Shown: positions 32,011 to 55,088 of the stretch, in pieces
How positions within the stretch are numbered: the stretch's first letter is position 1
Layout: each line of letters begins with the position of its first letter
Origin: Chitinophagales bacterium
GTDB taxonomy: Bacteria; Bacteroidota; Bacteroidia; Chitinophagales; BACL12
Direction of reading: 5' to 3'
DNA length: 56,105 nucleotides
NCBI GenBank assembly: GCA_046160675.1
Contig: JBJXHH010000076.1
Coordinates: 1 to 56,105 of the forward strand
Notes under the pieces: model-generated
What the model was told of the DNA's origin: nothing
The model's input: the letters and a program-made list of their open reading frames with translations, nothing else
Databases searched by the model: none
Position numbers and translations under genes: made by a program

Positions 32011-35000
32011 CTATCTCAATAAGGTTAGGTTTCCGTATGCAATTATCTTTTCACCACTTAAACAAACCGCTTCAATTGAATAAACATACACATCCTGATT
32101 GCAAAGTTTTCCCTTAGAAGTTCCATCCCAGCTTGCATATGGGTCATTTGTAGAAAATATCAGCCCGCCAAGTCTGTCAAAAATCTTATATCCTGAAACA
32201 CTTTCTAATCCTTCATATTTTATACTAAATACATCATTAAACCCATCGTTATTCGGTGTGAATAAATTGGGTATTGCGAAGAGACTCACCTCACATCCTT
32301 TTACATTAATAAAAGCGAAATCAGTGTCGGAGCAGCCAAATTGATTAGTAACGATAACACTGTAGAGTGTTGTAACATTTGGTGAAACATTAACACTTGA
32401 ACATGTATTACAGTCTATATTATAATCAGGCATCCATGCATAACTCATGGTATTTGAAGAAAAATCAGTTACAGTTGTATTTAACACAAGTGGGTCCTGG
32501 CCAATAATGTATAAAAGGGAGTCTTCAATAATATTTACAACAGGAGGGTCGTTTACAGATATATAGGCTGTATATGTTTCGATTAGGTTTCCACATGTTG
32601 CTTCCACAGTATAACTAATATCATTTGTGGGAATGCTGTATGGGTCTAACGAATAACTATCTGATAAAAATGTGGAGGGCGACCAGACATAATTAATGAA
32701 TCCTTCATTAACAGAATCTGTAAAATCAACAAACAAAGAAACAGTATCACCTATACAAATATCTGCATCAGAACCTGCAGCATTGATTAGGTTATTTATG
32801 ACAGATATTGTTGTTGATGTGTCAGAAGTACAATATCCATTATCCGCTATTACGGTGTAAGTAGTTGTGGTAATTGGCGATGCGATCGGGTCATTAATGT
32901 TTGTTGCTGAAAGGCTATCAGTTGGTGACCAGGTATAAGAAACAGCTCCATCAGCGTAAGCACTTAAAGAAACCGATAAACCGGGACAAATTGTAGTATC
33001 AGGCGAAATCATAATATCGGGATACTCAAGGGCAGTTACCAGAATTTCCATTTCATCTGTACATCCAAAAATCGTTTCAACCGTTAAGCTTGTATTATAA
33101 ACCCCAGGGTTCGTATAAACATGATTATAATTAGAGGATGAATCCGAAGAAATACTTAAATCCCCTAAATCCCAAAACCAACTTATCAGCTCATCGGGCC
33201 CCGAAGAACTATCTGTAAATGTTATCTCCTGACCAGTACAGATTGTAAGTTCTGAAACAAAATAATTTGCTGTTGGTAAGCCTCCAACTTCAATGGTATC
33301 ATTTGCGAGAAAAATATTAGAGCACCCTGCACTATCCGTAACATATGCTGAAATATAAAATGTTCCTGTATCTGAATAAATATAAGGGATTGTATATGTT
33401 GAATAAACATCTGTATAAAGTATGTCAGCATTATAAGTATTCCCATCTCCAAAAAACAATGATACTGTATCTATTGAAGCTCCATTTAAATAAAAGGAAA
33501 CGGCATCACCAATACACAAGCTATCATCGCTGATAGAAATATTCCCATAAGGGCCGGGAACGAGAGTATAACCATCTATTATGACCTCTCCGGAACACCC
33601 GTTTGTGTTTGTAATGATAACTGAAACCGTATATTCTCCAGCACTGATATATGCATGAATTGGTTCTGCTTCTGATGATGTGTAGCCATCCCCAAAATCC
33701 CATTCAAAACTTTCCAGGCTGTCAGCAGATTCAACAAAAAATTGAACTAAAGCATAGTTACAACTTGAAATCAAAATATCTGAATTGATTTCTCCCAAAA
33801 CTGTATCGGAAACAATTGATTCAAAGACTTTACTATCTGTACATCCATTAATGTCAGTAACAGTTAGAGTGACCGGGTAAGAGCCAATATCTGAATAGGA
33901 GTGAGATGGGAAACTATCCGTAGAAAAGCTGCCATCGCCAAATTCCCATGAGTAATCAATATCATAACCTGTTACTGTTTCATAAAAAAACACTTCTTCA
34001 TTAAGGCAGGGTATTGTATCTGAAATATAAAAATCTGCGAATGGTTGAGAAGCAATAATTTCAACTGTATCGTATGCAATACAACCCAACTCGTTAATTA
34101 CTGTCATAGTAACATTATAATAATTCTGAGTTGAATAGGTATGCGTCAAATCATCCACATCCGAAGCAGAATAAAATGTATCAATAGTACCATCATCCCA
34201 ATTGATTGTCCAAGATGATATATCAGCTCCTGATGAAACAGATAGATCAGAAAATTCTGCATCAAAAGGTAAACATCCCCCATAATCTGGAGTAAACAGT
34301 GAAGCGGTTATTGAACTTAAATATACGGTATCGCTTGTAAAAGCTGTACAACCTCTTGAATCTGTAATTGTCAGTTCCACAATAAATTGACCCGGAGAAA
34401 AATAAGTGTGGGTTGGATTATCTAAAGTTGAATAATACCCATCCCCAAAATCCCATTGATATGTTAATCCAGCGTCAGAAATACCGTCAGTTGAAAAATT
34501 CGAAAAATAAATTGCACCTGGCACATAACATCTCACTTCAGGTACGGCAATAAAATCAGCAACCGGTGTCTTTATAGTAACATATATTCCCAATCCCTGG
34601 CAAGGATCGGGTGTAATACAATAATAAGTCACCGTTACATGATATGTACCCGCAGCTGAATATGTGTGCGTAGGATTTAGTGATATGCTATCTGTGGTTC
34701 CGTCTCCAAAGTCCCATAACCACCCACAACTGGAATCTGCAAGTACTGGGTCTATAAATAATTCGACGGTGTAAGGATCTGTACAATTATATGTTACACT
34801 TAAGTTAGAATCATCAACATCAAGAATATGAATATCAGAAGAAATTGTATCTGTACATCCATTATTCCAAGTTATATAATCTACTGTGTGATCCCCTGGT
34901 GGAAGTGTAATAACAGTTGACGAACTAACTGGTGATGTTGACGCATAATCTAATCCACCATCAATTATTGCAGTAATAGAATCTAAAGGTAAATAATCCA

Positions 35001-36681
35001 CTTCTAACATTACTCCGGGGCAAGATGAATCAGGTATAACCAAAAGTGCAGTAAGTGTATCTCCAACACAAATCATATCATTTATATATACTGTATCACT
35101 ACAACCATTTACACTTGAGGCTATTAGCGAAACATCAGTACATCCAACAGTAGAATATAAATGAGTTGGGTTTGCGGCAGTTGAAGTTGTGCCATCCCAA
35201 AAATTCCATAAATAAGTTGTTAAAGCTTCAGAGCCGGTAGCACTAAAAGTTGTGGTTAACGGAAAACAACCTTCAGGTGGGAACGCATTTAAAACTAAAT
35301 CCAATTCACCAATTGTAACAAGGTCAGGAAGAGAATAGGTTGATATACAACCTCCTGTTGTAGATACAGTAATACTTACGTCAAAATCACCTGATTGATT
35401 CCAGGTATAAGTTGGATTTAACATTGATGAAGTAGAGGTGAATCCATCATCTTCAAATGACCATAATACTGTAGAATAACTGCCACTTATAGTAGGTGTA
35501 AAAGAAACACTGAAAGGTGTTTCGCAAACACTTGAGGGATCAGTATAAGTATATGTTACCAAAGGAGGTTCCTCAACTGTAATCAAATTCACAAAACTAA
35601 TACTGCCGCTGCATCCTCCTCCAAAATCAGCATCTAATGAAACTGTATATACACCCGGGCCGGGGTATATATGACTGGGTTCAAATAAGGTAGAAGTTGA
35701 CCCATCACCAAAATTCCAAAGCCATGAACCAGTTGATGAACCGCTCAAATTATCAAAGAATATCTCTTCACCATCGCATATAATTGTTTCTGAAGGAATA
35801 AAATTGACAATTGGGCTGGCATTTATTTGTACATAATCTGTAAATACTTCAGTATATATACATCCATTATTATCTGTAACTGTTAATGAAACATCATAAG
35901 AGCCATATGACGTATAATTATGTGATGGGCTTGTTCCAACTGAAGTAGCACCATCCCCAAAATCCCAGAGATAGGTTAGAGGTAAGACTCCAGTGCTTGT
36001 ATTTGTAAAGTTTATGTTTAATGGTGTTGCACAAGAAATAGAAGCCGTTGATGTAAAAGAGGGCTCTGGCCAATCATAAACTGTTACCTCAACGGTGGCA
36101 AAATCTTCACACCCTGCATCATCTTCAATAAATAAATAAACATAATATGTACCCGGAGTATCAAAAGTATAGGTGAGTGTGGGATCTGAAGGTAAAGTTC
36201 CCGAGCCGAAAATTACCCAGTAGTAACTACTTATTGCTCCATAAGAGCCCGGAATAGAAGTATTTGAAAATGAGGTTGTGAAGGGAGCACAACCTTCTAG
36301 GTCTGAGGCTGAAATAGAGGCTGTGGGTGGACTATGGACAGTTGCAAATGCCGGGATAGTCAAAATATCCGTCGAACCACCAGAACCTGTAGCAGTTAAG
36401 GTTACAGTATAATCACCAACTGAATACAGAAAAAAAACGGGTTCAAATAAAGTTGAACTGCCTACTAATGAGCCAGTGGGATCATAAACCTCCCAGTAAT
36501 AAGATGTGGCACCGGTTGAATTATTTATTAGGACCAATTCCAGAGATAAACATCCATCAGTTGTATCGGAACTAAAATTTGCAGAAACCTGACTATTTGC
36601 CTTTTGACCAATAGTTAGAAAAATGATCAGAAGTAAACTGATAATAACTCTACTTAAGATATTAAACTTAAAGATAGACAT
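32011..36681 (-). CDS. Large PKD-repeat surface protein with T9SS type-B (gliding-motility-associated) C-terminal domain
   Basis: Signal peptide; six WxFGDG motifs plus variants; C-terminal IPNLFTPNNDGFNDVF...IFDR.G...WDG...VYVY...GNLTLLR. Confidence 0.92.
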   Translation of the reverse strand: MSIFKFNILSRVIISLLLIIFLTIGQKANSQVSANFSSDTTDGCLSLELVLINNSTGATSYYWEVYDPTGSLVGSSTLFEPVFFLYSVGDYTVTLTATGSGGSTDILTIPAFATVHSPPTASISASDLEGCAPFTTSFSNTSIPGSYGAISSYYWVIFGSGTLPSDPTLTYTFDTPGTYYVYLFIEDDAGCEDFATVEVTVYDWPEPSFTSTASISCATPLNINFTNTSTGVLPLTYLWDFGDGATSVGTSPSHNYTSYGSYDVSLTVTDNNGCIYTEVFTDYVQINASPIVNFIPSETIICDGEEIFFDNLSGSSTGSWLWNFGDGSTSTLFEPSHIYPGPGVYTVSLDADFGGGCSGSISFVNLITVEEPPLVTYTYTDPSSVCETPFSVSFTPTISGSYSTVLWSFEDDGFTSTSSMLNPTYTWNQSGDFDVSITVSTTGGCISTYSLPDLVTIGELDLVLNAFPPEGCFPLTTTFSATGSEALTTYLWNFWDGTTSTAANPTHLYSTVGCTDVSLIASSVNGCSDTVYINDMICVGDTLTALLVIPDSSCPGVMLEVDYLPLDSITAIIDGGLDYASTSPVSSSTVITLPPGDHTVDYITWNNGCTDTISSDIHILDVDDSNLSVTYNCTDPYTVELFIDPVLADSSCGWLWDFGDGTTDSISLNPTHTYSAAGTYHVTVTYYCITPDPCQGLGIYVTIKTPVADFIAVPEVRCYVPGAIYFSNFSTDGISDAGLTYQWDFGDGYYSTLDNPTHTYFSPGQFIVELTITDSRGCTAFTSDTVYLSSITASLFTPDYGGCLPFDAEFSDLSVSSGADISSWTINWDDGTIDTFYSASDVDDLTHTYSTQNYYNVTMTVINELGCIAYDTVEIIASQPFADFYISDTIPCLNEEVFFYETVTGYDIDYSWEFGDGSFSTDSFPSHSYSDIGSYPVTLTVTDINGCTDSKVFESIVSDTVLGEINSDILISSCNYALVQFFVESADSLESFEWDFGDGYTSSEAEPIHAYISAGEYTVSVIITNTNGCSGEVIIDGYTLVPGPYGNISISDDSLCIGDAVSFYLNGASIDTVSLFFGDGNTYNADILYTDVYSTYTIPYIYSDTGTFYISAYVTDSAGCSNIFLANDTIEVGGLPTANYFVSELTICTGQEITFTDSSSGPDELISWFWDLGDLSISSDSSSNYNHVYTNPGVYNTSLTVETIFGCTDEMEILVTALEYPDIMISPDTTICPGLSVSLSAYADGAVSYTWSPTDSLSATNINDPIASPITTTTYTVIADNGYCTSDTSTTISVINNLINAAGSDADICIGDTVSLFVDFTDSVNEGFINYVWSPSTFLSDSYSLDPYSIPTNDISYTVEATCGNLIETYTAYISVNDPPVVNIIEDSLLYIIGQDPLVLNTTVTDFSSNTMSYAWMPDYNIDCNTCSSVNVSPNVTTLYSVIVTNQFGCSDTDFAFINVKGCEVSLFAIPNLFTPNNDGFNDVFSIKYEGLESVSGYKIFDRLGGLIFSTNDPYASWDGTSKGKLCNQDVYVYSIEAVCLSGEKIIAYGNLTLLR

Positions 36682-36724
36682 GTGTGTTTACAACAAAATA
36701 CTTTTATCGATACAATGCTGGGTA

Positions 36725-36740
36725 TCAATATATATGCCTT
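36725..36740 (-). promoter_or_regulatory. Candidate sigma-54 promoter for the PKD gene
   Basis: Minus strand AAGGCATATATATTGA (GG-N10-GA; -12 imperfect). Confidence 0.4.
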
Positions 36741-37000
36741 GACAATTCCATTTTAACCATCAAGACATTTGGTTCAAATTGTTAAGTCACATCTTAGATG
36801 ATATGTTCTTACATTTTATAATGAAGGAAAGCTAAGCTGATTGAAATGAGTAGTTTTCCTTCTAATACATTATACTTATTATGTTTTACCTAACCAATTG
36901 TGCTGTTACAAAAATGTGATAAAATAGTACCCTATGAGCAAAATTTATAGAGTATTTTAAGTTTTCACCAGACTTCCATAATCTATATTAACAACCCATT

Positions 37001-37249
37001 TTCCATTTTTTGGAATGACTGGAAATGTATATGTATTTACATATATATTGATGTATTTGAATACTCTGTAACCCATGTGAATAAAAGCCATTTTTCACTA
37101 CAATCTTACTGATTTAGTGACTTCTCCAAATTTTGGAATAAGGTACAATTTCTAGAATTCGGAATCCATAATTTTCTCACAAATTGCTTTCATACTCTTT
37201 ATAAATTAGGCTTGTAAGAGCTGATATACATCAGTTCCAAGGAATGGAA
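37001..37249. promoter_or_regulatory. Cluster of TTCCA-N5-TGGAA palindromes (candidate enhancer sites)
   Basis: TTCCATTTTTTGGAA 37001-37015, CTCCAAATTTTGGAA 37124-37138, TTCCAAGGAATGGAA 37235-37249. Confidence 0.65.
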
Positions 37250-37389: not shown

Positions 37390-38739
37390 ATGGCACACTT
37401 TAAAATCTTTATTGTTGAAGACGATCCCTGGTACGGAGAATTACTTGAGTATCATATCACTCAAAATCCGGAAAATGAGGTTTTCAGGTTTACTACTGCT
37501 AAAGAATGTCTGAAAAACCTGAACATTAATCCTGACCTTATTACAATTGACTTCTCTCTACCTGACATGAATGGGGAAGAGCTGATTAAAAAAATTCAGC
37601 ATTTTAACATAGATATACCACTAATAGTAATTTCCGGTCAGGAGAATGTTTCTACCGCTGTATCACTTTTGCATAAGGGTATATATGACTATTTTGTAAA
37701 AGAAGACGGAACACTTGAACGGCTATGGAATCATGTAAATAAGATAAGAGTAAATAAAGAACAAGTAACTCAAATTACAGCTTTAAGAAGTGAACTTGGG
37801 AAAAAATACAAATTTGAAAATAATTTAAAAGGAGAGAGCCAAGCCATAAAATCGACTTTTTCATTAATAGAAAGAGCCTCGAAATCTAATATCAATGTGT
37901 CAATTTCCGGGGAAACCGGGACCGGAAAAGAATTGGTTGCAAAAGCTATTCACTATAATTCTGATAGACACAAGAAACCATTCATTGCAGTGAATATGGC
38001 TGCAATACCGAAGGATTTAATTGAAAGCGAACTTTTTGGATATGAAAAAGGAGCATTCACCGGAGCCGTTTCAAGAAAAATTGGTCGTTTTGAGGAAGCA
38101 GATAAAGGAACTTTATTCCTGGATGAAATAGGTGACCTTGATTTGAATTTACAAAGTAAATTATTAAGAGTTATCCAAGAGAAGGAACTTACTAGATTAG
38201 GAGGAAATGATGTTACAAAATTCGATGTTAGGTTAATTATAGCAACACATAAAAATCTTGCTCAAGAAGTTAGAATCGGTAATTTCAGAGAAGACCTATA
38301 TTATAGAATCATTGGCCTACCGATAGAATTAGCTCCGTTAAGAGACCGTGGAGATGATGTGATTTTACTTGCTGAACATTTTCTGGAAGAATTTACCCGT
38401 GAAAATAAACTCAGAGCTGCAAAATTAAGTGAACAGGCATTGAAAAAATTAACCCAGTATCATTTCCCCGGAAACATCAGAGAACTTAAATCAATAATTG
38501 AGATAGCAGCGGTAGTTGCTGATAACGGAATTATTAAAGAGGACGATATCCGTCTATCGAGGGTACATAATACTATGTCCATCATTCAGGAAGAAATAAC
38601 ACTCGAAGAATATAAAAAAAGAATTATTGGGCATTTTTTAAAAAAATATGATAATAACGTTTTGTTGGTTGCAAAAAAGTTGGATATCGGTAAATCTACT
38701 ATATATAATATTCTACAATCTAATTCATTATCAATATAA
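37390..38739 (+). CDS. Sigma-54-dependent response regulator (NtrC family: REC-AAA+-Fis HTH)
   Basis: IVEDD...IDFSLPD receiver; [41 protein letters not shown]; C-terminal HTH; TAGTTTTG -7 box at 37371. Confidence 0.96.
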
Positions 38740-38759: not shown

Positions 38760-39176
38760 ATGGAACATACAATTGCATCAACAAATTTGAACTTTGAATC
38801 TCGCAAAAATGACTCAATGTATGATTTAAGCAATTTGTATAAAATTGCCCGAGGAAACTCCATGTTTATAGAAAAAATGCTTACTCTTTTTTTAGCAGAA
38901 ACCACAATTATAAATAAACTCATAATTGATAACTATAAAAAACATGCATTCAATGAAGTTAAAACATTGGCACATAAATTAAAATCTAACCTGCAGGTTC
39001 TTGGTATAACAATTTTAAAAAAGCAAATATCTATAATTGAAGAAATGGATGTAAAAGATTTTGAGTTGAGAGGGTCAGACAATCATATCCACTCATTTTG
39101 TTCTTCATTAGAAGTAACACTCAATATGATACAACAAAATGAACTTGGTAAAACAAAAAATCCAATAAAAGATTAA
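38760..39176 (+). CDS. Stand-alone Hpt phosphotransfer protein
   Basis: YDLSNL...GNSMFIEKMLTLF...LAHKLKSNL with the conserved His. Confidence 0.85.
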   Translation: MEHTIASTNLNFESRKNDSMYDLSNLYKIARGNSMFIEKMLTLFLAETTIINKLIIDNYKKHAFNEVKTLAHKLKSNLQVLGITILKKQISIIEEMDVKDFELRGSDNHIHSFCSSLEVTLNMIQQNELGKTKNPIKD

Positions 39177-39345: not shown

Positions 39346-40560
39346 ATGGAAAATATGAACAGTTTAAAATTTTTTGTTGTAGATGACAATAAAGCGTATG
39401 CATATTTATTAATAAAGACTTTAGAAAATGAAGGTTTTCAAGAAATTGAATATTATGAAAGCGGAAAAAAATGTATTGAAAACTTAAATAATAAACCCGA
39501 TATTATATTGCTTGATCATCACATGCCCGGGATGACGGGTTTGGAAACACTTAAAGAAATTAAGAAGCAATTACCAGGTGTTTATGTGATTAATGTGAGC
39601 GGGCAGGAACAAACTGATATTGCTGTCGGAGCACTAAAAGCAGGGGCTTATGATTATATAATAAAAGGTGACAATGAATTTGAAGCTCTCATAGAAATAA
39701 TAAATAAAATTCGAAATATTTCAAAAACTGAAGTAAAGCATTCCCTTGTTGAAAAACATAAAACTCAACCTTATCCCAACCCCATTTCACTTTTTCAGAA
39801 AAATAAAATTGAAGGAAATCTATTCGCTTTCATACTTGCAATTACAGCCTTCATCGCTCTTTCCTCATGTTCAACACAAAATTTACTCACTCAAGCATCA
39901 ACCAAATCAAAAGATGCTGATGATTTAATAAATAACAATACTCCATCTGCTTATACCATTCAACAAGGAGATAAACTAAGTGTAAGTATTTGGGATCATG
40001 ATGATTTAAGTGTAGGTTCCATTTTCACAATCTACAATTCCAACGAAGTTTATGGTAAATGGTTACAGGTAGATCCTGATGGAAATATTGCATTACCGGG
40101 GATCGGAACCACAAAAGTTGAAGGATTATCATTAACTGATTGCGAAAAGCACTTATCAGAATTGTATAAAAACACAATTGTAAATCCGTTAATTGAAATT
40201 CGAGTATTGAATTGGGAAGCATCTGTTTTAGGCGAGGTTCGGAATCCCGGAAACATTTCATTGGAAAACGAAAAGCAAATTTTACTTGAGGTCATCGCAC
40301 TTGCCGGAGATTTTGAACCTTATGCTGATAAAAAAAATGTAAAGGTGGTGAGAATGCAAGATGGAAACACGATTGAATACAATATCAATCTTGTACAACT
40401 GGAATCTGAGCTGCAAAGTAAACTTTTCATTTATCCCGGTGATATAATATATATCCCTTCACGTAAAGGGAAAATATTGGATATCAAATCACAATCACTA
40501 ATTCCTATAGCTTCGGTTTTGACCGCTGCTGCCATTTTATATTCAACACTCAATAAATAA
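39346..40560 (+). CDS. Receiver domain fused to a Wza-like polysaccharide export lipoprotein
   Basis: Residues 1-125 form an intact REC (VVDD, LLDHHMP, VSG, IK); internal hydrophobic helix and LSSC lipobox (Cys175); YTIQQGDKL, VDPDGNIALPGIG, VLGEVRNPG, PGDIIYIP Poly_export/SLBB motifs. Confidence 0.85.
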   Translation: MENMNSLKFFVVDDNKAYAYLLIKTLENEGFQEIEYYESGKKCIENLNNKPDIILLDHHMPGMTGLETLKEIKKQLPGVYVINVSGQEQTDIAVGALKAGAYDYIIKGDNEFEALIEIINKIRNISKTEVKHSLVEKHKTQPYPNPISLFQKNKIEGNLFAFILAITAFIALSSCSTQNLLTQASTKSKDADDLINNNTPSAYTIQQGDKLSVSIWDHDDLSVGSIFTIYNSNEVYGKWLQVDPDGNIALPGIGTTKVEGLSLTDCEKHLSELYKNTIVNPLIEIRVLNWEASVLGEVRNPGNISLENEKQILLEVIALAGDFEPYADKKNVKVVRMQDGNTIEYNINLVQLESELQSKLFIYPGDIIYIPSRKGKILDIKSQSLIPIASVLTAAAILYSTLNK

Positions 40561-40571: not shown

Positions 40572-42806
40572 ATGACTGAATATCAAAAAAATATTAAAAT
40601 TATTTCCCCTGTAATAAAAGGAATTCCGATAATAATCATTTGTATTGGAGCAGCCTTCTGGCTTGGGAATCAATATTTAAAATATTGTACCCCGGAATAT
40701 GAAAGTACAGCTGAGATCAAACTGGCGGATATTCAAGATGGCCCGTCAAGCAGCAATCTGTTCAAAGATTTTGATGTATTTGTCCAATCAAATAAAATTC
40801 AGGAGGAGGTTGCCACCATTAAATCACATATGATAGCCGATCGAGCATTGGATAAATTACAAATGTATAGGACAAATTGTTATAGAATCGGGGATATTAA
40901 GACTACCAACCTGTATAAAGAGTCGCCGTTTATTGTAAAGTTTTCAGAAAATAATTCCCATTTTTTTGATAAATCATTTCCGATTTCAATTGATATAAAT
41001 GAACGTTTTATATTGACTGATGTAACTGATAATAACAGAAAATACAACGGAAAACTAGGAAATGAATTGAAGCTTAAACATGGAACCCTATCTATTCTGA
41101 AAAACGAGGAGTTGTTCAATAAAAAGAAAAACATTGACCTTGCTGATAATTATTCCTTTATAATATACAACAGGGAAAGTCTCATCTCGAATATTATGAA
41201 TGGCTTAGACGTAACATCGATAGATAAAGATGTTGCTGTTTTGCGATTATCTTATAGAAGCGATGTTCCGGAGGAAGCAGCGGATGTTGTAAATGCTGTT
41301 GCGGAGGCATACATGGATGATTATGTGCAAAATAAAATTGAAGCAGCAGAACTCACAGTTAAATTTATTGATGAACAAATAGCATCCATTTCCGCACAGT
41401 TATCAGGTAGTGAAAACACAATAGAGTCTTTCCGAGATGCAAATAATATTATCAATATCAACCAACAAACAGAAACAGATTTGCGCAAAATTGCTGAAAT
41501 GAAAATTCAGATGTCAAATCTGCAAATGAATATAGCTGGAGTTGACACTTTAGTAAACTACCTGGAAAAAAATAAAAATGATTTTCATTCTACAGCCCCG
41601 AATTTCCAGGCTTACAATGATTTACTTTCAACTCAACTTGTCAAACAATTAAAGGAGCTAGAAGCTGAAAAGAAAGACTTACTACTAAAGTATACACCGG
41701 ATAATCAGAAAATAAAAGTCCTGGATGACAAGATGCAGGATATTACTGATTATATTATTGAAAGCGCAAAAAACACTCAAATAAATTTAAAAGCTAAATA
41801 CGATGAAACCTATTCGGCAATTTCGCAATCTGAAAGTGCATTTATTGGATTGCCCGCAAAGGAAAAACAATTAAGTATATATGAAAGGTACTTTAACCTC
41901 AATGAGAAAATGTACAATTTCCTAAATGAAAAAAAGATGGAAGCCGAAATCGCAAAAGCGGCATCAATTACTTTTCATCGCATAATAGAACCGGGAATTG
42001 TATCCAATGTTCCGGTTTCTCCTAATCGCTTATTTGTTCTTGCCCTTTTCATATTTATTGGGATCGTCATTAGCATCATTAGCATTTACATTTGGGATTC
42101 ATTTAAACCCGGTATTAGAAATTCTGATAAAGTAGAAAAGAATTCTAATATTCCATTTGGGGGTAAATTAAAATTATTATTTCCTAAAGAAGTTTTTCCA
42201 GCATTTAGAAAATTTTTATTTGACCTCAAGTTTAAGGGCGTAATAAACCACGGTAATACAGTTTGTATAAGTTCATATGGTCCAAAAACAGGAAAATCAT
42301 TTATTGCAAATTACTTGTCAGAAACCTTTGTAGAGGAAAACTTCCTAACCCTGTTTATTTCCTGCGATAATTCAGAATCCGGGTTAGACGAGATGAAAAA
42401 TTATACCGAAATGCCGGATAATTATTTAGCATGCAATAAACTACATGAATTAAGAATATCAGAAAGTGATATTCTTACACATAAATTTGAACAAATGTTA
42501 CCGTTTATTCAACATCGGTTCCAGGCAATTATTATTGATTGTTTTTCGATTTCAAATTCTGTTGCTGCCATCGGCTTAATGCGCCAGAGCCATCAAAATA
42601 TGATCGTTCTTGATTCATTTAAATCAAACCTCACTCATCTTCGGGAACTTGAAATCATATGTCTACAGTATCAAATTAGAAATCCATTTATCATACTAAA
42701 TAGAGAAGGTGCTTCAAGAATTGATGTCCTAAGATTTAATCTCGCTTCAGTTAAACAAAAACTGCCTCAGCCATCATTTCGTCCACAACTATCCCCGACT
42801 CACTAA
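40572..42806 (+). CDS. wzc: Wzc/GumC-like polysaccharide co-polymerase with degenerate kinase domain
   Basis: Two TMs, PEYESTA, long coiled coil, PVSPNR, Walker-A-like GPKTGKS; no C-terminal Tyr cluster. Confidence 0.85.
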   Translation: MTEYQKNIKIISPVIKGIPIIIICIGAAFWLGNQYLKYCTPEYESTAEIKLADIQDGPSSSNLFKDFDVFVQSNKIQEEVATIKSHMIADRALDKLQMYRTNCYRIGDIKTTNLYKESPFIVKFSENNSHFFDKSFPISIDINERFILTDVTDNNRKYNGKLGNELKLKHGTLSILKNEELFNKKKNIDLADNYSFIIYNRESLISNIMNGLDVTSIDKDVAVLRLSYRSDVPEEAADVVNAVAEAYMDDYVQNKIEAAELTVKFIDEQIASISAQLSGSENTIESFRDANNIININQQTETDLRKIAEMKIQMSNLQMNIAGVDTLVNYLEKNKNDFHSTAPNFQAYNDLLSTQLVKQLKELEAEKKDLLLKYTPDNQKIKVLDDKMQDITDYIIESAKNTQINLKAKYDETYSAISQSESAFIGLPAKEKQLSIYERYFNLNEKMYNFLNEKKMEAEIAKAASITFHRIIEPGIVSNVPVSPNRLFVLALFIFIGIVISIISIYIWDSFKPGIRNSDKVEKNSNIPFGGKLKLLFPKEVFPAFRKFLFDLKFKGVINHGNTVCISSYGPKTGKSFIANYLSETFVEENFLTLFISCDNSESGLDEMKNYTEMPDNYLACNKLHELRISESDILTHKFEQMLPFIQHRFQAIIIDCFSISNSVAAIGLMRQSHQNMIVLDSFKSNLTHLRELEIICLQYQIRNPFIILNREGASRIDVLRFNLASVKQKLPQPSFRPQLSPTH

Positions 42807-42807
42807 T

Positions 42808-44058
42808 ATGAAGAGGCTCATGCACAATCATAAACTACTTGTAGTAACTGACCAGTGTATTATAAGCGGTACAAATTTCATTACCGGAATATTTCTAGCA
42901 AAATTTTTAGGGTCAGAGCTTTTTGGAGTTTTTGCATTTTCATGGTTAATTCTTTTGATCATGATGTCATTCCAATTCAGCTTTTTCATTCAACCCATGC
43001 AAATATTATTAGCCAGGCTTACTATAATAAAACAAAAAGAATATTTAGGCAATGTACTTTATTTACAAATATTTTGGGCATTGAGTGCAGGAAGTATAGC
43101 TGCATTGCTTATTCATTTTAGCAACCTGAATCAGGTAAATAACAAATTCATATTAGCAACGATGATTACAGTAACTGCTACCCTATGCCAGGATTATATC
43201 CGACGAACCTATATCATCAAAAATAAATTATTAAATGCAGTTATCCATGATAGTTTTGTTAGCATTTTACAACTACTTTCGTTAATCATTATTTATTTCA
43301 CACAGGCATCCTTACCTTTTTGTTTATTCGCAATAGGTTGCAGCTACATACCCTCTGTTATTGTTGGGATTTATAAAAGCGAGAGGTCTAAATTAATTTT
43401 TTCAGAAATTAAATCAACCTTCATTAAAAACTGGGGTTATTCAAAATGGCTTGTTGCTACATCAACTTTGCAGATATTTTCAGGGAACTACTTATTATTG
43501 TTAGCTCCCAGTTATCTTGGGGTTGCAGTATTGGGTTCAATACGGCTTGCTCAAAATTTAATAGGAATTCTCAATGTAGTATTACAGGCCTTTGATAACT
43601 ATGTTCCTGTTACAGCTGCAAAACTCTACTCAGTAGAAACGAATAAATCTTATAAGTATTTAACTAAAATCAGTTTACAAGCTGCTGCTTTGATTTTCAC
43701 TATTCTGATACTTGTTTATATGACTGCAAGTCCTATTTTCTCCATTTCCGGTGGTTCCTCTTATGAAGGAAACGCATACATACTTCAAGGATTTTGTTTT
43801 GTCTATTTTTTCATGTTTGCAGGATATCCAATGAGGATTTTACTCCGTTTACAAGAAAGAACCCATCATATATTTATTGCTTATGTTCTAGCCTCAGTTT
43901 CAAATTTAGCATTTGCAAAATATATTCTTGAGAATTTTGGAGTAATCGGTTTACTGGTTTCGCTTTCAGCTATACAATGCATCATGCTTATTTATATGTC
44001 TTTAGTATTACTCATCAACAAAAAACAACATGCGAATTATTCATTGCATATTAGGTAA
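42808..44058 (+). CDS. wzx: Wzx-like flippase
   Basis: Multi-TM; DQCIISGTNF...LGSELFG start typical of polysaccharide flippases; locus context. Confidence 0.8.
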   Translation: MKRLMHNHKLLVVTDQCIISGTNFITGIFLAKFLGSELFGVFAFSWLILLIMMSFQFSFFIQPMQILLARLTIIKQKEYLGNVLYLQIFWALSAGSIAALLIHFSNLNQVNNKFILATMITVTATLCQDYIRRTYIIKNKLLNAVIHDSFVSILQLLSLIIIYFTQASLPFCLFAIGCSYIPSVIVGIYKSERSKLIFSEIKSTFIKNWGYSKWLVATSTLQIFSGNYLLLLAPSYLGVAVLGSIRLAQNLIGILNVVLQAFDNYVPVTAAKLYSVETNKSYKYLTKISLQAAALIFTILILVYMTASPIFSISGGSSYEGNAYILQGFCFVYFFMFAGYPMRILLRLQERTHHIFIAYVLASVSNLAFAKYILENFGVIGLLVSLSAIQCIMLIYMSLVLLINKKQHANYSLHIR

Positions 44059-46439: not shown

Positions 46440-46473
46440 TTCCATTTTTTGGAAAGCTTTCCTATAACTGGAT
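46440..46473. promoter_or_regulatory. Tandem TTCCA-N5-TGGAA-type sites (candidate enhancer)
   Basis: TTCCATTTTTTGGAA (46440-46454) and TTCCTATAACTGGAT (46459-46473). Confidence 0.65.
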
Positions 46474-46576: not shown

Positions 46577-49045
46577 ATGTTAACCGGCTCCGAATATTTT
46601 ACAAAATCTTTTCTCAGTAACCACTTCTTTCCGGAACCTACCGAAGGAAATAAAATTGAATTGCATTTCATCAAAAATCCGGATAAATCGATACGCTGGA
46701 TTTACCCAGCAAAATTAACAGAACCTCTCTTTCTCAAATTTTACAATGCCGCTACAATAAAAAGTAAAATATATGCATTTCTGGTCGAAATTGTTTTCCT
46801 GCTTCGATTAAATCGGTTCCTAAAAAGCGGAAGCATTTTTACAGAAGCTTCCCATATTAAAAATCTGCTTGGAAGCGATTTAAGCAATACCGCTTGGGCA
46901 CTCTTCACGGGAACAATAGGTCCCGGGAGAAAGTTAATTTCAGTTACAAAAAGTAAAAAAGGGATCTATTATTTTACTAAACTAGCAATAACTGAAAAAA
47001 GCAAACTTGATTTAGAAAATGAAATTACAGCATTACAATATATACATAGTATTAACCTAAAAGATATTCAAGTTTCAAAAATAAAGATTTTAGATTCTGA
47101 TAGTTGCAAATTCACAGATCTGAAATCGAAAGGTGCATTCAGAACTCCTTACCTGACTCAACAGCATGTTCATGCGATAATAGATTTACAATCTTCAACA
47201 ATAAACACGACATATGCAAAGTCGGAATTTTGGAAGGAAATTTCGTTGCGCATTTCGAACCTAAAAAATACTCAGTCAAAAATACCAACCGATCTAATAG
47301 GCAAAGTTGAGCAGCTCCAAAATCAACTGAAAAGCAATAATGAATTTCAATCGTATTTTGCTCACGGAGATTTTACACCCTGGAATTTATATGTTACAAA
47401 ACATAATATAGCCCTTTATGATTGGGAGTTAGCTGGTTTTCAGCCCATATTATTTGATTTATTTCACTTTATATGTCAATCCGGTATATTGTTACAAAAG
47501 AAAAATTATGTTTCTTTAAGAAAAGAAATTGATACTTTTATAAACACTTGTACCGAAGATACTCGTCTGAATAATTCAGGCCTTCAACCCCGCATTTATT
47601 TTGGCCTTTATTTATTAAGTATAACAACTTATTACATAAACATCTACAATACTCAAGAAAAGTGGCATACGCAAGTGTATTGGCTTCTTTCGTTTTGGGA
47701 AAAAGCTTTATCAGAAGAAATTGCATACTACTCAAAAAAGAAGTACAGGGAAATATTTTTGCCAGAATTCTTTTCGCATTTGCGCAATTCCAGGTATGCA
47801 TTTTTGAAATTTCATTATTCGAATATTGAAGACATTCCAATAACTTCCGATATTGATCTTGTTGTTGAAAAATCCGAAATAGAAACTGTAAATAAATTCA
47901 TCGCACAGCATGTATTAGTTAAAAAATTGAACATCGTAAAGAATTCTATGATGGCAAATTTTGAAATATTTTTCCGGGATGGAAGTATGCTTAGCGTCGA
48001 CTTAATTCATAGCATCAGGCGGAAAAATGTTGTAATGTTGGAAGCGAATTCTGTTTTAGATTCTGCAATTGTTAATGAATCGGGTATAAAAGTAGCATCA
48101 AAAATAAATGACCTACTGTACACCTGGTTATTTTATATTCTAAATGATTCTAATATTCCGGATAAATATATAGTACGATATGCACAGCTCTATAATATAG
48201 AACTGCAAAAACTCATGCAAGAATTTGAATCTATTCTTCATTTACGAGAAAGTAATTTGTGTGATATTTTTACTAATTCAAATCTACATGCCAGCAAAGC
48301 AAAAATTTACTTAAAGACTTTAAGAGAAAATCATGGAATACAAAAATTGAAAAATAGTATTCAATATTTCAGGGATATAATCAAGAATTTAAGTTTTAAT
48401 AAAAAAGGGCTTACAATAACATTTAGCGGAGTTGATGGTTCCGGTAAATCAACAGTGATTCAGGAAACACAAAAACTATTAGAAAAAAAATATAGACGAA
48501 AAGTAGTAGTCATTAGACACCGTCCAGGTATATTACCTATCTTAAGCGCCTGGAAATATGGGAAAAAAGAAGCCGAAACCAGGGCTACACATCAATTACC
48601 AAGAAAAGGAAAAAATACCAGTAAATCTCTCTCCTTACTCCGCTTTAGCTATTATTACTTGGATTTTATACTAGGCCAGTTTTATGTTTGGTTTAAATAT
48701 ACTGCTCAGGGGTACATTGTTTTATATGACAGGTACTATTTTGATTTCATAAATGACCCGAAGCGTTCAAATATAAATTTATCTTCTTCATTTATTAAAA
48801 AGTTTTATGCCGCCATCTTTAAACCTAAACTCAATTTCTTTTTATATGCCCCTGCAGATGTTATTATTTCCAGAAAACAAGAATTGTCTAAAGAAGATAT
48901 AATAGATCTGACTGAAAAATACAACGGTCTTTTTCAAAACTTTCAAAAGAAATATAACCGTTCTGCGTATATAAGTATACAAAATATTGAACTTGAAAAA
49001 ACCTTGCAAACTATTTTATCAAATTATCAAAATTCGTTAGAATGA
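46577..49045 (+). CDS. Three-domain protein: APH-like phosphotransferase + nucleotidyltransferase-like + thymidylate-kinase-like P-loop
   Basis: HGDFTPWN...YDWE...FDLFHF; SDIDLVV...VDL; FSGVDGSGKST...YDRY. ATG at 46577 preferred (ORF open to 46499) because of the promoter and leader motif. Confidence 0.8.
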   Translation: MLTGSEYFTKSFLSNHFFPEPTEGNKIELHFIKNPDKSIRWIYPAKLTEPLFLKFYNAATIKSKIYAFLVEIVFLLRLNRFLKSGSIFTEASHIKNLLGSDLSNTAWALFTGTIGPGRKLISVTKSKKGIYYFTKLAITEKSKLDLENEITALQYIHSINLKDIQVSKIKILDSDSCKFTDLKSKGAFRTPYLTQQHVHAIIDLQSSTINTTYAKSEFWKEISLRISNLKNTQSKIPTDLIGKVEQLQNQLKSNNEFQSYFAHGDFTPWNLYVTKHNIALYDWELAGFQPILFDLFHFICQSGILLQKKNYVSLRKEIDTFINTCTEDTRLNNSGLQPRIYFGLYLLSITTYYINIYNTQEKWHTQVYWLLSFWEKALSEEIAYYSKKKYREIFLPEFFSHLRNSRYAFLKFHYSNIEDIPITSDIDLVVEKSEIETVNKFIAQHVLVKKLNIVKNSMMANFEIFFRDGSMLSVDLIHSIRRKNVVMLEANSVLDSAIVNESGIKVASKINDLLYTWLFYILNDSNIPDKYIVRYAQLYNIELQKLMQEFESILHLRESNLCDIFTNSNLHASKAKIYLKTLRENHGIQKLKNSIQYFRDIIKNLSFNKKGLTITFSGVDGSGKSTVIQETQKLLEKKYRRKVVVIRHRPGILPILSAWKYGKKEAETRATHQLPRKGKNTSKSLSLLRFSYYYLDFILGQFYVWFKYTAQGYIVLYDRYYFDFINDPKRSNINLSSSFIKKFYAAIFKPKLNFFLYAPADVIISRKQELSKEDIIDLTEKYNGLFQNFQKKYNRSAYISIQNIELEKTLQTILSNYQNSLE

Positions 49046-52137: not shown

Positions 52138-52169
52138 CCAAAATGGAACAAAATAAGACTATTATGCAT

Positions 52170-52272
52170 ATTAAATTTCTGGAATTTATTCCAATTTTTG
52201 GAATGCAACGCCCTATTTACTCTCTGAAACCACAAGGCCATAGGGAGTCAAAAAAATGGCATATATTTTTTA
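52170..52272 (+). promoter_or_regulatory. Candidate enhancer palindrome plus weak sigma-54 promoter
   Basis: Half site ending TGGAA at 52184, perfect TTCCAATTTTTGGAA 52189-52203, TGGCATATAT at 52257 (-24 good, -12 lacks GC). Confidence 0.5.
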
Positions 52273-52302
52273 TACATCTAAAAAGAACAATTAGTTGTTA
52301 AC

Positions 52303-53445
52303 ATGAAACGCATTGCAATTATAGGAACCGCAGGTGTGCCGGCGAGATACGGAGGGTTTGAAACCTTGGCAGAGCAGTTAGTAAATACGCTTTCTAATCA
52401 ATATTCTTTTATAGTATATTGTACAAAGTCACTTTATACAAAAGAAGAAAGATCAAAATCAAATAATGAAAATTTCAAACACTTGTATTTGCCATTACAG
52501 GCGAATGGGAAAAGTAGTATTTTGTATGATTTTGTATCAATGCTACATGCAATTTTTTATGCAGATATCTTGTTAGTATTGGGCGTTTCGGGTGCCATAC
52601 TATTTCCTGTTCTCAGGTTATTTACTAATAAAAAACTTATTGTAAATATTGATGGTATTGAATGGCGAAGAGACAAATGGAAAGGTATAGCTAAATGGTA
52701 TTTGAAGTTGAGCGAAAGGGTTGCTGTGAATTATGCGCATACCTGTATAGCAGATAATAAAGCCATTCAGGATTATGTTTTTGAAACTTATCACAAGAAT
52801 GCAATTCTTGCAGAATATGGTGCTGATCACACTATGCAACAACAATTCAGCGCCGAACTGAAAAGGAAATACCCATTCATATATTTACCCTACGCATTTG
52901 TTGTTTGCCGAATAGAACCTGAAAATAATACTCATTTAATATTAGAAGCATTTTCAAAAGACCCAACCAAACAATTAGTCATTGTTGGCAACTGGGAAAA
53001 TAGTTTGTATGGAAAAGCATTACTAGATAAATATTCTCAAACTTTAAACATCCATTTACTTGGCCCCATTTACGAACAGGTTACCCTAAATATGCTGCGC
53101 AGTAATTGTTTTGTTTATATACATGGCCACAGCGCCGGAGGTACAAATCCATCCTTAATTGAAGCAATGTATTTAGGGTTGCCCATACTTGCATTTGATG
53201 TAAGTTATAACAGGGAGTCAACGGAAAATAAGGCTCACTATTTTGAAAATGTGCAAACATTAACAACTCAGCTAAAAACATTACGATTAAATGATTTAAT
53301 GGAAAATGGAAAAAACATGAAAGAAATAGCTGACAGAAGATACAGGTGGGAAATTATAGCAGCAAAATATAATGACATGTTCACAACTGCCATTAAAAAG
53401 AAAAGAGAAAAAAAGTCATTGGTAATGCAAAACCAAATAGGTTAG
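52303..53445 (+). CDS. DUF1972-type GT4-like glycosyltransferase
   Basis: IIGTAGVPARYGGFET, NIDGIEWRRDKW, RIEPENN, HGHSAGGTNPSLIEAM. Confidence 0.9.
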   Translation: MKRIAIIGTAGVPARYGGFETLAEQLVNTLSNQYSFIVYCTKSLYTKEERSKSNNENFKHLYLPLQANGKSSILYDFVSMLHAIFYADILLVLGVSGAILFPVLRLFTNKKLIVNIDGIEWRRDKWKGIAKWYLKLSERVAVNYAHTCIADNKAIQDYVFETYHKNAILAEYGADHTMQQQFSAELKRKYPFIYLPYAFVVCRIEPENNTHLILEAFSKDPTKQLVIVGNWENSLYGKALLDKYSQTLNIHLLGPIYEQVTLNMLRSNCFVYIHGHSAGGTNPSLIEAMYLGLPILAFDVSYNRESTENKAHYFENVQTLTTQLKTLRLNDLMENGKNMKEIADRRYRWEIIAAKYNDMFTTAIKKKREKKSLVMQNQIG

Positions 53446-53477
53446 GAATTTATTAAAATGCACACAACACACACACT

Positions 53478-54590
53478 ATGAATTATATTTACTCAGCGTT
53501 AACCATTATTGCCCCCCTAATAATACTTTCTTTTATCGGTGTTCGGCTTTTGGTTCCCAAAATAATTGCTTACGCATTTAACAATAACCTAACTGATAAA
53601 CCTAATGACAGAAAAGTTCATCATAATGCAATTCCCAGGTTGGGAGGAATTGCATTCGGAGGCACCCTCCTACTTATTTTTACCGGTTATGTAATACTTG
53701 ATGGAAGCCTTGGTTCGTTAGCTACACTGATTGCTTTGAGTCTCATTTTTATTACCGGCCTTATGGATGATATTAAAGAAATAAAAGCAAAAAAGAAATT
53801 TGTAATTCAAATTGTAGCCGCAGTAATTATAGCATCAGAAGGAATCCGCATTACACATTTATGGGGCCTGTTTGGTATCAATGAACTCAGTATTTTCTAT
53901 CAATATGTAATAACCGTTATTATACTTGTAGGTATTACAAATTCTTTTAATTTAATTGATGGAATAGATGGCCTTGCTGCCGGAATTGGTTTGATAAATT
54001 CATTTGCACTGGGATGTATGGCTTTTTATGCCTCCTTCACGGAAATTGCAGTTCTGAATTTCACTTTGGCAGGAGGGCTTTTTGCTTTTTTGTTTTTCAA
54101 CTTCAACCCCGCAAAAATTTTTATGGGAGACAGCGGATCCACCCTCATTGGTTTTTTAATGGGTGTTTCTGCCTTATATCTTGCTACCCATCATGAAAGT
54201 TTTCAAACTATAAATGTACCCATTGCTATGTTTGGTATTTTATTATTGCCTGTCTTTGATACAATAAGAATTCTTGTTGAGCGAATAATAAGAGGCGTTT
54301 CGCCGTTCACTGCTGAAAAGAATCACATTCATCATCTGCTTTTAGAAACAGGGTTAAATCATAAGAAATCTTCCATTATTTTATACATATCGAATATTCT
54401 TATTATCATTTTCTCAATGTTTATTCAGCAGATTGTGAGCATGACGGATGCTATAATTTTAACCTTCACTTTTGGAATTTTACTTTTTGAGGCTTGTACA
54501 ATCAAAAACATCTTATATTCCAAAAAAACAAGGCTTAAAAACATGCTTAATTTAATTGAACTGGAAAGGGAAAATACACTTATAAAATAA
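53478..54590 (+). CDS. wecA: WecA/TagO-like undecaprenyl-phosphate HexNAc-1-phosphate transferase
   Basis: DKPNDRKVH..IPRLGG, GLMDD, NLIDGIDGLA, IFMGDSGS, HIHH. Confidence 0.88.
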   Translation: MNYIYSALTIIAPLIILSFIGVRLLVPKIIAYAFNNNLTDKPNDRKVHHNAIPRLGGIAFGGTLLLIFTGYVILDGSLGSLATLIALSLIFITGLMDDIKEIKAKKKFVIQIVAAVIIASEGIRITHLWGLFGINELSIFYQYVITVIILVGITNSFNLIDGIDGLAAGIGLINSFALGCMAFYASFTEIAVLNFTLAGGLFAFLFFNFNPAKIFMGDSGSTLIGFLMGVSALYLATHHESFQTINVPIAMFGILLLPVFDTIRILVERIIRGVSPFTAEKNHIHHLLLETGLNHKKSSIILYISNILIIIFSMFIQQIVSMTDAIILTFTFGILLFEACTIKNILYSKKTRLKNMLNLIELERENTLIK

Positions 54591-54599
54591 CACACACAT

Positions 54600-55088
54600 A
54601 TGAAAACAGAAATACTTTTAATTGACAAAAATGCTGATTTCTCTGAAAACATTGCATCCTTACTCTCTAACAATTTTACTAAGGATGTTCAGGTTTATAA
54701 TTCTCTTGAAGAAATGCCAGAGAAAAGTCCCGACGTAAAACGGATTGTTATTTATATTATGACTGTACCGCCGGACACAAACTATCATCATCAGCATATT
54801 GAAGAAAAAAGAAAGTCTCTGGCGTTTGATTATATTATAGTACTTACAAAAGAAAATACAATCAAGTCTGCTCTCAACTTTATAAAAGCAGGTGCAATTG
54901 ACTGCATTGAATTAGACGAAAAATTCTACGCAAAGCTAGATGATACATTAACAAATGTTTTTAAGTTCATGTCATTAAAGGAGAACATCAATACAATAGA
55001 CTCAAAATTGGATATCAGGTCAAGGCAACTAATTGGATCCATATCTCTAACCATTTTACTTATCACATTAGCATTTTTGATGTTTTAA
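54600..55088 (+). CDS. Degenerate receiver-like protein with C-terminal TM helix
   Basis: ILLIDKN and IIVLT...ALNFIKAGAIDCIE follow the REC pattern; phospho-Asp absent (IVIYIM); hydrophobic C-terminus. Confidence 0.6.
   Translation: MKTEILLIDKNADFSENIASLLSNNFTKDVQVYNSLEEMPEKSPDVKRIVIYIMTVPPDTNYHHQHIEEKRKSLAFDYIIVLTKENTIKSALNFIKAGAIDCIELDEKFYAKLDDTLTNVFKFMSLKENINTIDSKLDIRSRQLIGSISLTILLITLAFLMF

Follow-up and report, generated by a model that had tools for sequence, protein, structure and literature searches.

A stretch of 56,105 nucleotides from a Chitinophagales bacterium (Bacteroidota; GenBank assembly GCA_046160675.1, contig JBJXHH010000076.1), hereafter the window, probably carries a copy of a cassette for Wzx/Wzy-dependent exopolysaccharide (EPS) that is distributed patchily among Bacteroidota and brings its own regulation along. 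We have found a syntenic core of 12 genes, including an NtrC-family sigma-54 activator, across distantly related genomes, and a homologue of this activator (47-60% identity) is present in all 10 related loci. An earlier note on this DNA, made from the sequence alone, had regarded conservation of the regulatory genes with the EPS locus as decisive for its proposal. They are conserved: the activator is found in 10 of the 10 related loci, a receiver beside or on the Wza protein in six, and a sensor and/or a kinase in nine. The gene order and domains listed in that note (positions 32011 to 55088) were also confirmed by open reading frame (ORF) listing and by Pfam and NCBIfam scans.

Conservation of the cassette among Bacteroidota

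Related loci were collected by homology searches with two queries, the receiver-Wza protein and a fusion of two kinase-like domains (the kinase fusion). The kinase fusion is present in nine of 400 other sampled Bacteroidota genomes and in two of 40 relatives, and was not found in one same-genus genome (89% complete). Flanking regions were taken from seven of the nine kinase-fusion genomes, the two weakest partial matches (G067 and G052) being left out. Together with L002, G032 and G015 these make up the 10 related loci, which are few and some of which are kin to each other; their start codons were set by eye. Using the window proteins as tblastn queries, we have recovered the cassette in L002, G032, G079, G126, G194, G381 and G107 and part of it in G134, G289 and G015. 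The cassette proteins share 24-65% identity with those of the window. Most related loci have a common order of Wza, Wzc-like protein, Wzx-like protein, family 4 glycosyltransferase (GT4), Wzy, kinase fusion, acyltransferase, two further GT4 enzymes, DUF1972 glycosyltransferase and WecA-like protein, and the activator gene is upstream, divergent, or directly after WecA.

A scan of genome contigs with the fusion alignment, one of whose two patterns is a generic receiver motif, left L002 as the sole full-length relative with the cassette among the 80 loci kept. The corresponding scan of metagenome contigs with a single fusion protein gave two loci, both receiver-only matches at 29-32% identity. 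The G+C content drops from 0.36-0.40 to 0.30-0.34 across the window locus, which, together with the patchy distribution, fits horizontal spread. All ORFs of the window locus are open and full length compared with their orthologues, and the locus is kept with few differences in sequencing runs of several studies. The carrier runs are mainly biofilter and aquatic metagenomes, that is, from settings where matrix production matters.

The sigma-54 activator and the shared palindrome

The activator gene (37390..38739, + strand) encodes an NtrC-family sigma-54 enhancer-binding response regulator (Sigma54_activat, PF00158, 3.1e-69; Response_reg, 3.6e-16), which has the sigma-54 interaction sequence GAFTGA at residue 221 and a C-terminal helix-turn-helix (HTH). 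Assigned by eye, its N-terminal receiver shows the DD pair and an Asp at the end of strand 3, and its C-terminal tail is of the Fis type. Ten of the 11 activators compared retain GAFTGA or GSFTGA. The window protein matches the LuxO model at 5.1e-99, below the cut-off of that model, and is the only DNA-binding protein conserved in the cassette. The genome encodes RpoN with its RpoN box and five true activators. In the complete genome G079, an rpoN gene lies directly beside the receiver-Wza gene of the cassette and is divergent from it (L104 7693-9219).

The palindromes that the earlier note described as shared among the upstream regions are evident in the window. TTCCA-N5-TGGAA has 11 matches there with at most one mismatch, compared with 3.99 expected, and none of 100 shuffles reaches 11. 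Five of the 11 matches are located in intergenic DNA of the locus (at 37001, 37124, 37235, 46440 and 52189). Three of these lie in the 708-bp region between the activator gene and its divergent neighbour (37001-37015, 37124-37138 with one mismatch, and 37235-37249), an exact copy lies upstream of the kinase fusion (46440..46454), and another exact copy precedes the DUF1972 gene (52189-52203, + strand). In the whole genome (3.2 Mb) there are 11 exact copies, four in this locus and six of the other seven inside ORFs. The related loci (250,025 bp) also hold 11 exact copies, ten of which stand before the receiver gene, the kinase fusion or the DUF1972 gene. The position upstream of the kinase fusion is likewise occupied in L104, L106, L108, L112 and L114, and in L105 and L109 copies with one mismatch lie over the start of the activator gene itself. 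More distant loci have variant palindromes with the same 5-5-5 build. Matches with a 6-nt spacer are about as frequent as expected by chance; the true spacing is 5 nt. Half-sites of 5 nt that are 5 nt apart correspond to the NtrC-type layout. We propose the palindromes as candidate binding sites of the activator, and their arrangement with -24-like boxes in the relatives would fit enhancer-dependent transcription.

Elsewhere in the same genome, a gene for a low-molecular-weight phosphotyrosine phosphatase (Wzb-like family; C178 6797-7348, L128) has an exact copy of the palindrome inside its ORF, and one of the two TGGCAY-N5-TTGC matches of the genome lies 156 nt upstream of it.

Promoter boxes, AC runs and start codons

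The sigma-54-like boxes of the earlier note were not borne out. No intergenic match to TGGCAC-N5-TTGCW with up to two mismatches was found in the window, and the window as a whole has 17 matches versus 27.6 expected. The pattern GG-N10-GC gives one weak intergenic match (36750, 7 of 12 positions), and its GG is polymorphic in two runs. A -24-like TGGCAT hexamer at 52257, followed by a poor, T-rich -12 region (52257-52273, + strand), is located 46 nt before the DUF1972 start and 54 nt after the palindrome, an arrangement like that of L105 and L109; no other promoter region of the window locus keeps such a hexamer.

In the relatives, 12 of 20 upstream regions have TGGCA[CT] on the sense strand no more than 120 nt from the start, whereas 2000 mononucleotide shuffles average 0.59 such regions and never exceed 5, and the antisense strand gives 3. 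These boxes are mostly located 27-62 nt before the start and are followed by T[TG]G after 5 nt. To judge from these motifs, the upstream regions of the relatives appear to have an enhancer-dependent promoter layout with a non-canonical -12 element, and the promoter read by RpoN of this genome may differ from the textbook form. Sigma-54 dependence is thus a well-supported prediction for the family and a tentative one for the window copy. Scans of 36000-55500 for sigma-70 promoters and terminators were uninformative (96 vs 97.4 and 12 vs 9.1 expected, respectively). The sequence TTGGTATA, which recurs near starts, was set aside (6 occurrences vs 2.8 expected, a count reached by 8 of 100 shuffles). 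A 12/12 match to the sigma-54 consensus occurs inside the GT4a coding region of G107, on the coding strand (L116 5401, -). G107 is the one related locus without palindromes and without an adjacent kinase.

The (AC)n runs described earlier are real. Five genes of the locus (PKD, Hpt, kinase fusion, WecA and REC-like) have (AC)3-5 immediately in front of their ATG, and a sixth run precedes the 30600 gene outside the locus. The supposed leader at 49780-50069 is coding sequence and forms the N-terminus of the second GT4 protein (GT4b). The (AC)5 run before the kinase fusion (46567-46576) is 2 bp shorter in one sequencing run (X1), a repeat-length polymorphism. Because this shortening would shift the frame from GTG 46499, the kinase fusion likely starts at ATG 46577. 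In GT4b, the conserved Met reads CTG (window 49776-49800), and the runs of two studies agree at that position. The stretch from the upstream stop to the conserved N-terminus is devoid of ATG, GTG and TTG.

Sensors, hybrid kinases and a stand-alone Hpt

Downstream of the activator gene, nine of the 10 related loci have a sensor and/or hybrid kinase, G107 being the only one with neither. Four loci have an H-NOX gene (HNOB, E 3.8e-37 to 5.3e-52) together with a kinase of HNOBA/PAS-HisKA-HATPase-REC(-Hpt) architecture, three have a FIST sensor, and two have a hybrid kinase directly after the activator. All four H-NOX proteins retain the motif Y-x-S/T-x-R. A histidine phosphotransfer (Hpt) domain was detected at the C-terminus of the kinase three times by Pfam (31.1, 25.7 and 23.7 bits, the last of which falls short of the 24.6 cut-off) and a fourth time by tblastn.

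In the window, no H-NOX, FIST or kinase gene is found beside the activator, and HNOB was not found in this genome (95% complete). There is instead a stand-alone Hpt-like ORF of 138 aa (38760..39176, + strand; Pfam Hpt 0.0012, 19.5 bits, cut-off 24.6), which begins 20 nt after the activator stop. From its first residues on, it aligns with the linker and Hpt of the relatives' kinase C-termini; for example, residues 818-931 of the G126 kinase match window 38805-39146 by tblastn. The His of the AHKLK stretch is conserved in all five sequences compared. A word-based search of a collection of 5.8 billion proteins gave no stand-alone Hpt homologue of similar length. The junction between activator and Hpt is not an assembly artefact, because contigs from runs of two studies span it: one of 5,509 bp in run X1 covers 36685-42193 with 4 differences, and one of 1,337 bp in run X3 covers 38610-39946 with none. 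One of the two may be the window's own source. The alignments suggest that the window copy most likely descends from a kinase-bearing form by clean deletion.

Since the sensor-kinase is absent, either unlinked hybrid kinases would supply the input, much as in LuxU/LuxO, or the relay is idle. LuxU is an Hpt protein fed by separate hybrid kinases, and by analogy the predicted Hpt of the window may be fed in trans. This genome has an unlinked hybrid kinase of PAS-HisKA-HATPase-REC-Hpt architecture with a single receiver, adjoining a SpoU methylase gene (C130, L131), and an unlinked phosphorelay of HisKA-HATPase-REC, a 119-aa Hpt and a receiver (C137, L119). A SpoU methylase gene also flanks the cassette in G381.

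The receiver-Wza fusion

The gene at 39346..40560 (+ strand) encodes a protein of 404 aa with a receiver, a hydrophobic segment ending in a lipobox Cys (Cys172), Poly_export and SLBB domains and a C-terminal helix, i.e., a receiver joined to a short Wza/OPX protein. The Wza part has the hallmarks of OPX proteins (PF02563 1.5e-18; SLBB 3.2e-6; a lipobox; a modelled C-terminal helix at 373-399), and the lipoprotein signal is internal, behind the receiver. An AlphaFold2 model (predicted local distance difference test score, pLDDT, 83) has a receiver predicted with confidence, then a disordered linker, a helix spanning 154-170, a PES/SLBB body and the C-terminal helix. Ahead of the hydrophobic segment, the window sequence offers no internal Met as a separate start for Wza.

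The fusion is not confined to the window. Among the best 120 clusters (90% identity), 36 carry both Response_reg and Poly_export, and these come from metagenomes or, where named, Bacteroidota metagenome-assembled genomes. In 27 aligned fusions the receiver residues D10, D11, D54, S82 and K104 (acidic pair, acceptor Asp, Ser and Lys) are invariant, and the lipobox-like Cys (C172) at the end of the hydrophobic segment is found in 26. The nearest unfused homologues among the clusters listed are Bacteroidota Wza proteins of 240-270 aa. A receiver adjoins Wza or is fused to it in six of the 10 related loci. In the split forms, Wza has its own ordinary lipoprotein signal peptide, and one split receiver ends in a membrane helix.

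The earlier note had placed receiver domains on the export machinery. The fusion itself is real, but the receiver likely stays at the inner membrane rather than in mature outer-membrane Wza, because the fusion keeps its lipobox and alternates with split genes. The receiver is probably a membrane-tethered domain of the inner membrane, and the simplest reading of the conserved residues is that the fusion would be inserted N-in and processed at the lipobox into a tethered receiver and a normal short Wza. A more specific model, which we put forward tentatively and consider possible rather than probable, is that the fusion is a two-in-one precursor, with a canonical receiver extending its lipoprotein signal peptide into the cytoplasm. 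The cut by signal peptidase II at the conserved lipobox would leave the signal peptide as an anchor of the receiver, in a 1:1 ratio with Wza, and the receiver, rather than tyrosine autophosphorylation, would switch the Wzc-like protein, with gas or redox input from H-NOX or FIST in the relatives. If so, transcription of the genes and export of the polysaccharide would both respond to such a signal.

Short OPX proteins of Bacteroidetes with a C-terminal helix have been suggested to function like Wza (Schwabe et al. 2022, PMC9601211). The Wza part of the window protein (about 230 aa; PES, a single SLBB, C-terminal helix) resembles the short proteins presented there, whereas the fusion has in addition a canonical receiver of 125 aa upstream of the lipoprotein signal peptide. 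In the parts of that paper considered here no receiver architecture appears, "receiver" occurring 0 times and "response regulator" once, in a reference. No description of a receiver-Wza fusion, of an internal lipobox or of a receiver upstream of a lipoprotein signal peptide was found in the open-access literature.

The last gene of the region (54600..55088, + strand) was called a pseudo-receiver in the earlier note. The 162-aa ORF is weakly REC-like, but all its matches are sub-threshold (TadZ-like ARD 0.0023, below its cut-off; FixJ 7e-4). By eye it has no acceptor Asp at the end of strand 3, a single-sequence fold is unreliable (pLDDT 55), and no homologue was found for this orphan. It has a C-terminal hydrophobic helix and would be tail-anchored, with the topology proposed for the processed receiver.

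Wzc-like protein, flippase, kinase fusion and glycosyltransferases

The Wzc-like co-polymerase (40572..42806, + strand; Wzz 1.3e-6, GNVR 6.5e-7) resembles bacterial tyrosine kinases (BY-kinases) of the Wzc type (PCP-2a) in having periplasmic parts of the Wzz and GNVR families, a pair of membrane segments and, at the C-terminus, a P-loop domain. BY-kinases are defined by Walker A, A' and B motifs and a tyrosine cluster. The C-terminal domain of the window protein keeps Walker A (GKS) and the Walker-B Asp, without an A' motif or tail tyrosines, and there is no Wzb gene in the locus. The tyrosine cluster is also absent from five of seven relatives, and the Walker motifs are degenerate in three. 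As the tyrosine switch is missing, His-Asp input could, speculatively, replace it. A predicted complex of the receiver (1-130) with the Wzc C-terminal domain (525-744) scored 0.00, which gives no verdict.

The next gene (42808..44058, + strand) encodes a multi-pass membrane protein of 416 aa at the place where the earlier note saw Wzx. The membrane protein is there, but it has no Pfam or NCBIfam match and is flippase-like only by Atlas features, its nearest Atlas clusters being oligosaccharide flippase / Polysacc_synt (score 0.99); its place is conserved in synteny. Farther along the + strand lie a GT4 glycosyltransferase (44030-45148; Glycos_transf_1 3.4e-26) and a Wzy-type polymerase (45145-46437; Wzy_C 2.6e-18). 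The kinase fusion (46577..49045, + strand) joins an APH-like domain (3.9e-7) to a thymidylate-kinase-like P-loop domain (Thymidylate_kin 1.4e-6; match to thymidylate kinase in PDB, 4.8e-5). This protein of about 800 aa belongs to an uncharacterised family, mostly of Bacteroidota by Atlas clusters, marks the cassette and has its own palindrome and promoter region. The remaining genes of the cassette, all on the + strand, encode a hexapeptide acyltransferase (49042-49779), GT4b (49785-51083, with CTG at the conserved start position), GT4c (51022-52137), a DUF1972/GT4 glycosyltransferase (52303-53445; DUF1972 6.8e-24) and a WecA-like initiating phosphotransferase (53478-54590; Glycos_transf_4 3.3e-40; TIGR02380 wecA 1.5e-45, below its cut-off).

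The divergent PKD gene

Divergent from the activator gene, as noted earlier, and separated from it by the 708-bp region, lies a gene for a PKD-repeat surface protein of 1556 aa (32011..36681, - strand; Pfam PKD_4 2e-135 in 11 stretches). Its CHU_C sorting domain (4.1e-14; TIGR04131 51.1 bits, cut-off 35) marks it as type-B cargo of the type IX secretion system (T9SS). The earlier note had taken this protein to be part of the system. However, tblastn (E<=1e-6) gave no PKD homologue in any of the 10 related loci, two of which have unrelated T9SS cargo in the vicinity, namely a GH5 enzyme in one and a reprolysin/cadherin protein in the other. Cargo genes of this kind are common in the genome, with three more in the window, and adjacency is therefore cheap. 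The PKD gene is most likely an unrelated neighbour, which may at most share the divergent control region.

The analogy to the PrsK/PrsR control of PEP-CTERM proteins, also drawn in the earlier note, holds for function only. All three PEP-CTERM models score below their cut-offs (TIGR02915, 344.1 vs 502.6 bits; TIGR03027, 74.1 vs 180; TIGR03007, 96.3 vs 278.85), and no exosortase family is among the Pfam/NCBIfam matches of the 16 window proteins scanned. Judged by these models, the locus does not appear to be a member of the PEP-CTERM/PrsK-PrsR system. Like the PEP-CTERM/XrtA system (Haft et al. 2006, PMC1569441), it links a sigma-54 activator to EPS genes, and its activator, Wza and Wzc parts give sub-threshold matches to the models; it differs from that system in having no PEP-CTERM cargo, no exosortase among the 16 proteins and a T9SS cargo that is not conserved.

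Proposed regulation and alternative explanations

We propose that the activator would bind the palindromes and drive RpoN-dependent promoters 60-100 bp downstream (TGGCA[CT]-N5-T[TG]G in the relatives). In the relatives, an H-NOX or FIST sensor would control the hybrid kinase (HisKA-HATPase-REC, with the C-terminal Hpt detected in four), which would phosphorylate two receivers through the Hpt. The receiver of the activator would set transcription, and the receiver on the Wza side would act post-translationally at the membrane, perhaps on the Wzc-like protein without a tyrosine-kinase tail. Signal peptidase II would probably separate this membrane-tethered receiver from a normal Wza lipoprotein. 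In the genome studied here, the sensor and the sensing, catalytic and receiver parts of the kinase are absent, and the Hpt alone survives as its own ORF.

Several observations weigh against a cassette that regulates itself in this way. The intergenic DNA of the window has no canonical sigma-54 promoter, TGGCA[CT] was not found upstream of the window's receiver-Wza or kinase-fusion genes, and a relaxed box pattern is at chance in the window (3 vs 2.2 expected). The -12 halves of the relatives deviate from TTGC, and the canonical consensus is rare genome-wide (1 vs 1.8 expected; looser form, 2 vs 7.5). The HTH helices of the activators do not covary with the variant palindromes of L002 and L110, being too conserved to tell, and none of our results points to the protein that binds the palindromes. 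The receiver is not next to Wza in four of the 10 loci, and the case for lipobox cleavage comes from conservation only. With its sensor gone and a CTG start in GT4b, the window copy could be partly disabled.

Carried further, this last point would make the window copy a decaying, largely unregulated or silent remnant that has lost its sensor-kinase, its -24 boxes and one glycosyltransferase start codon. We consider this unlikely. The missing H-NOX, FIST or kinase beside the activator, the missing TGGCA[CT] upstream of receiver-Wza and kinase fusion, the CTG codon unchanged in runs from two studies and the failure to find stand-alone homologues of the Hpt and the REC-like ORF agree with decay, but every ORF of the locus is open and full length, the catalytic residues of the receiver, the Hpt His and GAFTGA are kept together with four exact palindromes, the locus differs little among runs of several studies, and stand-alone Hpt relays fed by separate hybrid kinases exist in the genome. 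It is slightly less probable still that the palindromes serve as operators for some regulator whose gene lies outside the locus, or have a structural role, rather than being enhancer sites of the activator. The copies over the activator's own start codon in L105 and L109 resemble repression, the window has no clear sigma-54 promoters downstream of its palindromes, and the link to the activator comes from sequence. Yet the element travels with the cassette between genomes whose proteins share as little as 35-60% identity, is nearly confined to this locus within the genome and has, as stated above, the NtrC-type layout of 5-nt half-sites and a 5-nt spacer; the activator is the sole conserved DNA-binding protein of the cassette, and a hairpin formed by the palindrome would have 5 pairs only.

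Another possibility concerns the extent of the system: the PKD/T9SS protein and the EPS genes might be regulated together as a single matrix system, equivalent in Bacteroidota to PEP-CTERM/PrsK-PrsR but with T9SS cargo. In its favour, the PKD and activator genes diverge from a region with three palindromes, a relaxed box (AGGCAT-N5-TTGA) lies 58 nt before the PKD ATG, this ATG has the same (AC)n context as four locus genes, and other T9SS cargo occurs near two related loci. These features are outweighed by the absence of a PKD homologue from all 10 related loci, where the two nearby cargos are unrelated enzymes or adhesins, and by the frequency of T9SS cargo in the window; relaxed boxes are at chance, the other candidate has a GG polymorphic in two runs, and the PEP-CTERM models, together with the lack of an exosortase match among the 16 proteins scanned, argue in the same direction. 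We regard such a joint system as improbable. A closer contest is that over the receiver-Wza protein, which might remain uncleaved and bitopic in the inner membrane, so that phosphorylation of the receiver in the cytoplasm directly gates the Wza part in the periplasm. The single ORF in 36 of the best 120 clusters, the lack of an internal Met before the hydrophobic segment and a model with a continuous chain and one helix between the domains would suit an uncleaved protein. An uncleaved anchor would not need a Cys, though, which is present in 26 of 27 fusions, the split forms encode an ordinary lipoprotein Wza, and the C-terminal helix, as in the short OPX proteins, implies insertion into the outer membrane, difficult to reconcile with anchoring in the inner membrane when there is but one SLBB domain. 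Gating without cleavage thus seems doubtful to us, if conceivable.

Comparison with known systems

SypG of Vibrio fischeri is a sigma-54-dependent activator, and a conserved enhancer stands at each syp operon. In the Vibrio quorum-sensing relay, H-NOX acts on a hybrid kinase (HqsK), which signals through an Hpt protein (LuxU) to a sigma-54 activator (LuxO). The closest functional parallels to the cassette appear to be Syp of Vibrio fischeri (PMC12369376) and this H-NOX/HqsK-LuxU-LuxO relay, H-NOX-responsive quorum-sensing circuits having been described in Vibrio (PMC3759921, PMC6759604). Like the Syp locus (SypG, SypF, HahK/HnoX, SypE), the cassette has an activator inside the EPS locus and a repeated enhancer-like palindrome before several transcription units, a second receiver and, in the relatives, an H-NOX-linked hybrid kinase. 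It differs in phylum, in the second receiver, which is on or beside a Wza lipoprotein and not of the SypE type, in the FIST sensor of some loci, and in the window copy being without sensor or kinase; the likeness is one of function. The stand-alone Hpt and the activator of the window resemble LuxU and LuxO, whereas the targets here would be EPS genes in cis instead of small RNAs, and the Hpt of the relatives is fused to the kinase.

Sigma-54/phosphorelay-controlled EPS loci are known in Proteobacteria, and a general link of sigma-54 with EPS genes has been published (PMC3162934). We found no description of this cassette, or of such an EPS locus in Bacteroidota, in the open-access literature. 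The cassette offers a compact and testable regulon, in which a single activator, a 15-bp site almost restricted to the locus and three or four promoters as targets are combined, in the relatives, with a defined H-NOX or FIST input. A receiver upstream of a lipoprotein signal peptide is unusual and could show how export is controlled where the tyrosine switch of Wzc is missing. For annotation, the PKD gene should not be listed as part of the system, and the window copy should be recorded as being without a sensor.

Other genes of the window

Upstream of 32 kb, the window contains a dcw cell-division cluster and the three other T9SS cargo genes. Three tandem paralogous genes encoding proteins of 462-496 aa, with the T9SS Por_Secre_tail as their sole Pfam match, adjoin ftsZ (4577-9176). 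Between the dcw cluster and the EPS locus lie genes for a Y-family polymerase (IMS), a DUF5131 protein, a winged HTH protein and a repressor-like protein with HTH and S24 peptidase domains (25162-29206), which may represent an SOS or mobile module.

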